Positions 39,126-39,661 of a stretch of DNA of 64,000 bases are shown here, one piece after another. Where the stretch lies: NCBI RefSeq assembly GCF_988242995.1, contig NZ_OZ547043.1; one strand, 5' to 3'. The notes under the pieces are model-generated. The model made no database searches. It was not told where the DNA came from and saw only the letters and a list, made by a program, of their open reading frames with translations. How positions within the stretch are numbered: the stretch's first letter is position 1; each line of letters begins with the position of its first letter. The position numbers and the translations under genes are program-made.

Positions 39126-39661
39126 ACACAAACGCATCGAGGGTGCTGGCGTGTTGCCAGCCCCACCCCCTCCGAAATGATCCCCCAAAAAGTACAAAAT
39201 GATCCTCCATTAACGAACAGAAAACAAACAAACAAAGAGCAACAAATAAGCATTATTTACAATTCTTGACAAAAACACCCCCTATTTATAACCCTACCAA
39301 ATTTAAAATTACATCTACAAAACAATAAGTTACAAAATCAGCAACGGATCATTTCGAAAAAAACGGTTAGTCCCTTTTTCGAAAAGGGATCATTTTGTTG
39401 CTTAAACTCATATGCGGATTACATATCAATACGCTAGTGATAGCCGTTCTGGAATGCCACAGAAACGCGCTGTAATCGATTCTGGCGCAATTAGCTGTGC
39501 TAGGTAATGATTTACCTATCTGGGGATGTTGCGCACGTCTGGATTGCGTTACCACCGAAGATTGTGCGCGTATGGTGGCTGTTACGGTCGCCTCCCGACA
39601 ACGCAAAATTGCGGCGGCACAGTCGGTTTACCGCGCTAACACGGCTTGATTCACTCGCTCG

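Follow-up and report, generated by a model that had tools for sequence, protein, structure and literature searches.

A candidate non-coding mimic of a P1-family packaging site on a satellite island of Escherichia coli

Background

By what route does a chromosomal island without virion genes move between cells, and does the AT-rich, repeat-bearing stretch beside its iterons have a part in that movement? Many PICI-like islands of E. coli have no recognisable packaging module, and their way of moving is unexplained (PMC11773190). For the stretch considered here, at about 39170-39400 of the window (the whole 64,000-nt stretch of DNA that was analysed, to which all coordinates refer unless another sequence is named), a first-pass annotation had proposed a replication origin, a packaging site or a small RNA.

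Results

The island and its class

The window is part of an E. coli chromosome and is 100% identical to strain LH13-b. Between tRNA-Pro (31901-31977), its site of insertion, and yejO lies a P4/PICI-type satellite island of about 9 kb whose genes are all on the + strand, in this order:

start of the island, +: integrase, then an AlpA-type HTH regulator
next, +: isrK/C4 antisense-RNA immunity region with an Icd-like gene (Rfam match)
next, +: DUF4222 gene, then a gene for a 711-aa DUF927 primase-helicase, P4 alpha-like (PHROG 1139, E=1e-166)
next, +: SSB, ProQ/FinO and PerC genes, then a 69-aa ORF, preceding the AT-rich stretch
right part of the island: AT-rich stretch, iteron cluster 2, a block conserved across island types, and a 198-aa cargo ORF

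An integrase at a tRNA gene, an AlpA-type regulator, a primase-helicase with cognate iterons and the absence of virion genes place the island among P4-like/PICI satellites, and the sid, delta and psu genes of P4 proper are lacking too. It resembles the P4-like/PICI islands that have no recognisable packaging module, one of which was demonstrated to act as a functional satellite (PMC11773190). The AT-rich region is present in all 66 full-length copies of the island and in E. albertii.

Repeats of the form TTAGTTATAYG lie near both ends of the island (32097-32154 and 40823-40848) and are likely integrase arm sites. The 11-mer repeats of the AT-rich region were also considered as arm-type or excisionase sites and rejected, the repeats shared by the two ends being TTAGTTATAYG and the AT-rich region lying about 1.5 kb from the right end.

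Directly upstream of the AT-rich region, the 69-aa ORF (38916-39125, +) matches PHROG 7206 (E=2e-6) and gives a full-length, non-significant Pfam alignment (E=0.57) to Tad2-like proteins (Thoeris anti-defence, DUF2829). When it was used as a query against genome contigs, the sole match was in E. albertii, at 97%. Some strains carry remnants of the island, for example NZ_CP101263 (L002 8528-9241), in which a deletion fuses the 5' part of the integrase gene to about 39440, so that the AT-rich region is lost and iteron cluster 2 retained.

An AT-rich region with four copies of an 11-mer

Across 39200-39399 the GC content drops to 0.29-0.33, from about 0.5 on either side, and the + strand there is strongly skewed towards C over G and A over T. 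The repeats first described there are present within a few bases of the positions originally given: direct copies of aaatgatcc (AAATGATCC) at 39175-39183 and 39197-39205, inverted copies (GGATCATTT) at 39346-39354 and 39387-39395, and a near-palindrome (CCCTTTTTCGAAAAGGG) at 39372-39388. The true repeat unit is longer than had been reported: GGATCATTTYG, an 11-mer found four times without mismatch in 225 bp, every copy containing a Dam GATC site. Two arms of motif copies flank a 141-bp spacer of about 30% GC, and the region can be laid out as follows:

39173..39183, -: motif copy 1, GGGATCATTTCG; exact, with a Dam GATC; identical to pacA site C (GGGATCATTTC) of the D6-like plasmid CP104667
39195..39205, -: motif copy 2, AGGATCATTTTGT; exact 11-mer; 12/13 against pacA site B, GGGATCATTTTGT
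39229..39246, +: A-rich tract, AAACAAAGAGCAACAAA; candidate IHF or bending site
39255..39272, +: central block, ATTTACAATTCTTGACAA; candidate cleavage or core element, which supplies the TTGACA of a promoter-like site
39346..39356, +: motif copy 3, CGGATCATTTCG; exact match
39387..39397, +: motif copy 4, GGGATCATTTTGT; 13/13 identical to pacA site B of CP104667 and CP069647
39173..39397, no strand: the whole proposed pac-like unit, that is two sites, A-rich tract, central block, two sites

Elsewhere in the 64 kb the 11-mer occurs exactly once more, at 61541. With up to one mismatch the window holds 10 matches against 2.96 expected, a number reached by none of 100 shuffles, and a search of the rest of the island with up to two mismatches, the alpA/immunity region included, gave no further site-like copy. 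Fur, IHF-consensus, OxyR and Lrp/pap-type readings of the motif do not fit all four copies; a reading as MITE or transposon ends was rejected as well, the repeats occurring at one place per genome with no target duplication.

The diversity of the island copies found was too low for covariation analysis or for firm tests of constraint. Among 10 copies, 3 of 44 motif columns vary against 26 of the region's 169 other columns (one-sided Fisher p=0.105), so that conservation of the motif is weakly indicated; copy 3 reads GGATCATTGCG in one island haplotype, and the first half of the central block varies. BLAST of 39100-39680 against E. coli returned only the same island and a 60-nt element common to other island types, and against phage and plasmid collections it returned no match. 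A metagenome scan with a conserved 21-mer found five near-identical copies. In IMG/VR a scan for motif pairs yielded at least 120 unrelated tandem repeats and was uninformative, and a scan for a three-site pattern yielded zero matches.

That the roughly 960 bp around these repeats hold no convincing gene is borne out. The annotated 50-aa CDS (39497-39649, +; RefSeq WP_001384688, 'hypothetical protein') loses its frame through a 1-nt indel at about 39512, both in E. albertii and in several E. coli copies, among copies otherwise 96-99% identical, and is probably not a gene. Overlapping it, a 60-70-nt element at 39455-39525 (…CCACAGRAACGCGCTGTAATCGATTCTG…; L009 7001-7071) is about 83% conserved across island types that share nothing else in the region; it is not a conserved ORF and folds without significant structure, and for 39399-39660 a search for structured RNA gave fold z-scores of only -0.6 and -1.5.

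Iterons and the origin of replication

A replication origin, the first of the roles proposed for the AT-rich stretch, does not agree with where the iterons lie. All 12 exact copies of GGGACARGT fall at 37369-37505 and 39662-39777 and none in 39170-39400, and about 260 bp of ordinary composition precede the second of the two clusters:

37369-37505: iteron cluster 1, GGGACARGT in opposed sets around its own AT-rich spacer
39662..39786: iteron cluster 2, three inverted and three direct GGGACARGT around an AT-rich spacer

Because each cluster has its own AT-rich spacer, the AT-rich region is not needed to make an origin. The two clusters are mutually inverted, which recalls ori and crr of P4, the pair looking as if assembled out of PICI-type origin units, and the alpha-like DUF927 primase-helicase extends the likeness to P4 and to the origins of E. 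coli PICIs, a likeness that fits the iteron clusters and not 39170-39400. In E. coli PICI origins, opposed iteron sets flank AT-rich DNA (PMC6092414), and by this analogy cluster 2 is likely an origin or a crr-like site.

The stretch might instead serve cluster 2 as an accessory part, either as an unwinding element or as a Dam/SeqA-controlled module like the GATC repeats of oriC and P1 oriR. It is AT-rich, contains GATC repeats and is near the iterons, and P1 oriR has five GGATCT-type repeats beside its own iterons. We nevertheless think such a role very unlikely: the stretch is 260 bp from the iterons, both clusters already have the PICI layout with an AT-rich spacer of their own (PMC6092414), the repeats are not in tandem at a spacing of about 10 bp, and other island types with the same right-end origin layout are without the AT-rich module.

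To the right of the iterons, a block of about 220 nt (39788-40009; L009 7399-7624) is 86.5% conserved in another island type with different iterons (GTTTGCGGGTTAT). A promoter-like CTGATA-N17-TAAAAT (39993-40021) closes the block, and the variable cargo slot follows immediately.

A cargo gene from the D6 lineage

The cargo slot of this island copy is filled by a single gene:

40088..40684, +: cargo gene for a PmgG-like protein of 198 aa (PHROG 1114 'PmgG-like', E=9e-60)

PmgG is an essential protein of the P1 baseplate/tail-tube junction (PMC9024508). The cargo protein is 81.5% identical (amino acids, full length) to its counterpart on CP104667, 72% to that of D6 and 40% to that of P1, and could act as a dominant-negative decoy against tail assembly of D6-like phages. 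The pmgG-like gene is present in one of 66 island-bearing complete genomes, and this is the only such island copy among 5,426 complete E. coli genomes; in the other copies, sequence runs from about 39943 directly to the att region. No P1-type late promoter -22 box was seen upstream of the gene, and among the strain names listed none had both the island and a D6-like plasmid. It was the PmgG-like cargo that prompted a comparison of the AT-rich region with P1-family packaging sites.

The motif and the central block recur inside pacA of D6-like phage-plasmids

The linker of D6 PacA is too diverged from that of P1 PacA (21% identity) for the D6 pac site to be mapped through the protein, and we therefore relied on conservation within the family at the DNA level. 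We aligned the first 865 nt of pacA from D6 with those of four D6-like plasmids, at 92% and about 69% identity, and then added the intact gene of CP104667. Overall these pacA genes are about 69-77% identical. Their linker (nt 150-480) has diverged until just 23-50% of its columns are invariant, and what survives unchanged there as 10-11-mers is the two AAATGATCCC sites together with a block at nt 245-259. Five GATC motifs occupy fixed positions in pacA (nt 316, 368, 396, 434 and 447) and, when oriented alike, share the extended consensus GGGATCATTT(T/C/G). At sites B and D the GATC is kept though the encoded residues change (RRSL/KGSF; EGSS/QRSS/KGSL). Four sites of CP104667 compare with the island copies as follows:

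CP104667 pacA site B: GGGATCATTTTGT, against island copy 4, GGGATCATTTTGT, and copy 2, AGGATCATTTTGT
CP104667 pacA site C: GGGATCATTTC, against island copy 1, GGGATCATTTCG, and copy 3, CGGATCATTTCG
CP104667 pacA site D: GGGATCATTG, island counterpart none
CP104667 pacA site E: GGGATCATTTG, island counterpart none

Identity of island copies with sites B and C thus reaches 13/13 and 11/11, and for copy 4 against site B of CP104667 and CP069647 it extends over 15 nt (AAGGGATCATTTTGT). CP104667, the best-matching plasmid for these motifs, is also the source of the closest homologue of the cargo protein, so that both point to one D6-like sub-lineage. Between the island region and the 5' part of the family's pacA genes, 21-41 9-mers are held in common, against a mean of 2.5-4.2 and a maximum of 17 in 300 dinucleotide shuffles; with P1 only 3 are in common, which is at background.

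The second correspondence is the central block. D6-like phages conserve ATTTACA-N4-YTGACAA at pacA nt 249-266. It is found a single time in the 91-kb D6 genome and a single time in the 64-kb window, midway along the island spacer (39255-39272). In three family members the reverse complement of the central element, TTGTCAGT, is the mapped cut-site sequence of P1. An A-rich AAAGAGCAA tract precedes the block in island and phages alike, and AAGAGCAACAAA of the island tract is found also in D6 pacA, about 30 nt upstream of the conserved block. The island tract has in addition a 10-mer, AAACAAAGAG, in common with the annotated IHF site of P1 pac, a weak link in view of how A-rich the sequence is.

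Compared in full with the D6-like pacA cluster (D6, CP104667, CP026808, CP137859 and others), the island region has the same GGGATCATTT(T/C/G) sites in both the TTTTGT and the TTTC variants, the same ATTTACA-N4-YTGACAA with A-rich AAAGAGCAA upstream, and, as in the phages, two plus-oriented sites 67-133 nt downstream of the block. It differs in arrangement: phage sites run + + - + - within 135 nt, with two close convergent pairs downstream of the block, whereas those of the island run - - (141 bp) + +, with two minus-oriented sites upstream of it, and the sequence between the elements is without similarity.

The region is not a decayed fragment or relic of the gene, since no trace of pacA is left at the protein level: tblastn with PacA against the region found nothing (E>=0.28), and blastn found only the short elements. 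Only those elements that might function in cis have been kept. These comparisons also bear on whether the region is a functionless remnant, decaying or partly owed to chance, such as the debris of an old recombination with a D6-like phage. In its spacer 15% of columns vary and in the flanks 5%, an evolutionary rate about threefold higher, and mutated motif copies occur in one haplotype and in one low-coverage contig. A remnant of this kind is nonetheless highly improbable in our judgement, given that four exact 11-mers and the central block have been kept where no pacA coding similarity remains, and that every full-length island copy, together with that of E. albertii, has the region.

Comparison with P1 pac

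P1 pac is 161 bp long and lies inside pacA, with four and three TGATCA/G hexamers around an IHF site and the cut site; its cleavage needs PacA, PacB, IHF and HU and is regulated by Dam methylation (PMC10028697). In the P1 annotation the IHF site reads AAACAAAGAGTTA and the cut falls within gTTGTCAGTg. Like P1 pac, the island region has Dam-methylatable TGATC-core repeats on two arms, an A-rich tract that is a candidate IHF site and a central element of TTGTCA type; GATC repeats flank the central region on both sides (2+2 exact copies, 141 bp between). The P1 order of HEX4, IHF site, cut site and HEX3 (PMC10028697) parallels that of the island, and the sizes, 161 bp for P1 pac and 225 bp for the island unit, are comparable. 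The repeats of P1 pac, however, are bare hexamers (TGATCA/G), 4+3, closely spaced and within coding sequence, whereas the island has an asymmetric 11-13-mer that ends in TGATCC, 2+2, widely spaced, in non-coding AT-rich satellite DNA. Since it is non-coding, lies on a chromosomal island and gives no tblastn match to PacA, we file the island region as a mimic and not as a phage pac site.

The packaging role put forward in the first-pass annotation thereby gains a specific form, in that the motif and central element match DNA elements conserved inside D6-like pacA, in that part of the gene to which the pac site of P1 has been mapped by experiment. The pacA motifs are, by analogy with P1, the putative pac site of D6; a literature search found no experimental mapping of a pac site in the D6 family. 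Read in the same way, the island's order of sites, A-tract, core block and sites would be the grammar of P1 pac in the dialect of the D6 lineage.

We accordingly rate as probable, though well short of secure, that the AT-rich region is a non-coding, rearranged pac-site mimic for the pacase of D6-like (P1-family) phage-plasmids, used for satellite packaging, phage interference or both. What has been observed in its favour is the identity of the motif and central element with D6-like pacA, the P1-like architecture and the pmgG link to the same phage lineage. Several points tell against it. The pac label on the pacA motifs derives from P1; site order and orientation differ from those of the phages, and each arm has two sites where P1 has 4+3. 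The central block is translated in frame within pacA (KFTEIDN/EFTKTDN), where its conservation could be at the level of the protein, and its first half is variable among island copies. The sequence that matches the P1 cut lies on the strand opposite to that of pacA, the pmgG link comes from a single one of the 66 genomes, no strain among the names listed combines the island with a D6-like plasmid, and constraint on the motif within island copies is statistically not firm.

Promoter, operator and RNA alternatives

Two features of the region are of the kind associated with transcription:

TTGACA at 39266-71, N15, TATAAC at 39287-92: sigma-70-like promoter-like site, its TTGACA lying in the pacA-type block
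39370..39390, +: terminator-like hairpin, GTCCCTTTT-TCG-AAAAGGGAT then CATTTTGTTG, overlapping motif copy 4

One alternative built on the first is an operator array, in which an island or host protein occupies the four sites around a sigma-70 promoter and controls rightward transcription in the direction of cluster 2 and the cargo slot; the control might depend on Dam or be phase-variable. Across 10 copies neither promoter hexamer varies, whereas 3 of the 15 spacer positions do, and the sites, each with its GATC, fall at roughly -120, -100, +50 and +90 from the predicted start. An array of this kind is in our view unlikely. With a 15-nt spacer and a -10 hexamer that ends in C the promoter falls outside the criteria of our promoter scan, the motif is absent from the rest of the island, including the alpA/immunity region, and the adjacent 69-aa ORF has no DNA-binding domain but a faint Tad2-like signal only. 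Nor does an operator explain why the extended motif and the TTGACAA block should recur in phage pacA.

For the small RNA suggested at the outset the signs are mixed. A promoter-like site and one terminator-like hairpin, the only such hairpin in 38800-40100, are indeed there; an Rfam match and covariation are not. On this alternative a C-rich, G-poor tract would be an entry site for Rho, the hairpin would terminate the alpha-ssb-proQ-perC operon, and an RNA of about 100 nt, started at the internal promoter, might be a partner of the island's ProQ/FinO protein. The hairpin has a T-run, GC skew is -0.44 to -0.59 across 39150-39349, the interval 39299-39402 folds at -19.5 kcal/mol (z=-3.4), and a ProQ/FinO gene lies two genes upstream. 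We take an RNA end or small RNA to be quite unlikely as the identity of the region, seeing that Rfam gives no match at E<=1, that a C->G change at the stem base and a G->C change in the outer stem are uncompensated in variants, and that the motif occurs on both strands, which points to recognition of DNA rather than RNA. A role as operon terminator or small RNA may, for all that, coexist with pac function.

Discussion

If the AT-rich region is a pac-site mimic, its use can be pictured as follows. A D6-like phage would reach its late phase in a cell that bears the island, and the PacA/PacB pacase would bind the four Dam-methylatable GGGATCATTT sites on the two arms, with the AT-rich spacer bent by host IHF and HU. 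A cut in or near the central ATTTACA-N4-TTGACAA block would then start headful packaging of island DNA, the substrate being concatemers produced by the island's primase-helicase and iteron replicon; were the island still integrated, adjacent chromosome would be packaged instead. The site would at the same time divert pacase from the phage. Binding, cutting and packaging by PacA are here extrapolated from the correspondence with pacA. Potential helpers would be common: of 5,426 complete E. coli genomes, 99 have plasmid-borne D6-like pacA.

A related island in strain C5 (NZ_CP010122), which has the same DUF4222/SSB/ProQ/PerC backbone except that a RepA-family helicase replaces the primase-helicase, is informative as to position. 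It has two cos-like sites (L141 6391-6470 and 7214-7300), which we take to be lambda-type from the lambda sequence, and a TerS-like gene at 7440-8024 (annotated as terminase small subunit), and these occupy the position of the AT-rich region and cargo of the window island. Such a pair of cos-like sites beside a TerS-like gene matches the two-cos arrangement of EcCICFT073 (PMC6092414), which argues that this position is the packaging module of the family.

The window island itself was searched for lambda-type and P2-type cos and has no conserved site of either type. With the cosN sequences that we assumed (GGGCGGCGACCT or GGCGAGGCGGGGAAAGCAC) it gave only 2-mismatch matches, at 38633 and 39585; the latter lies outside the AT-rich region and varies among island copies.

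Satellites that carry the packaging signal of their helper while having no virion genes follow a known strategy, as with the P2-type cos of P4 and the lambda-type cos1 and cos2 of EcCICFT073. The island would share this strategy and differ from both in its signal, which would be of the pac/headful kind of a P1-family phage-plasmid, terS and rpp being absent from the island. A P1-family helper would be a new variant, and our literature search found no described precedent for a satellite of P1-like phages. It is a tentative proposal, one that we would put somewhat below even, that P1-family phage-plasmids have in this island family their first recognised satellite, that its pac, rearranged, compact and non-coding, is where a D6-like pacase cuts and starts packaging, and that one copy has captured the pmgG of its helper, perhaps tampering with tail assembly.

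A pac mimic for P1-family phage-plasmids would explain the transfer of one family of islands of this class and would add phage-plasmids to the list of helper phages. The island would moreover supply a natural 'minimal pac' for the D6 lineage, defining the minimal recognition grammar of a D6-type pac as GGGATCATTT sites plus a TTGACAA core. Genes next to a pac site in the chromosome might also be transduced directionally and at high frequency, an effect reported for engineered P1 pac insertions (Huang and Masters 2014, as cited in PMC10028697).

Two further observations concern the island as a whole. Chi (GCTGGTGG) is about 5-fold enriched in the island (33346-39915), with 12 sites in about 9 kb, 10 of them on the + strand, against 14 sites, mostly on the - strand, in the remaining 55 kb or so of the window; this enrichment and co-orientation suggest a stage of linear or concatemeric island DNA exposed to RecBCD from one side. 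The isrK-C4-icd leader of the island (34270-34540) has a clear homologue in phage D6, namely one of its two C4/icd/ant immunity regions (L005 30170-30460, -), and the repeated recognition segments differ, TTGCTAC in the island and TTGAGAC in D6, which suggests, from the sequences compared, one control system with different specificities.
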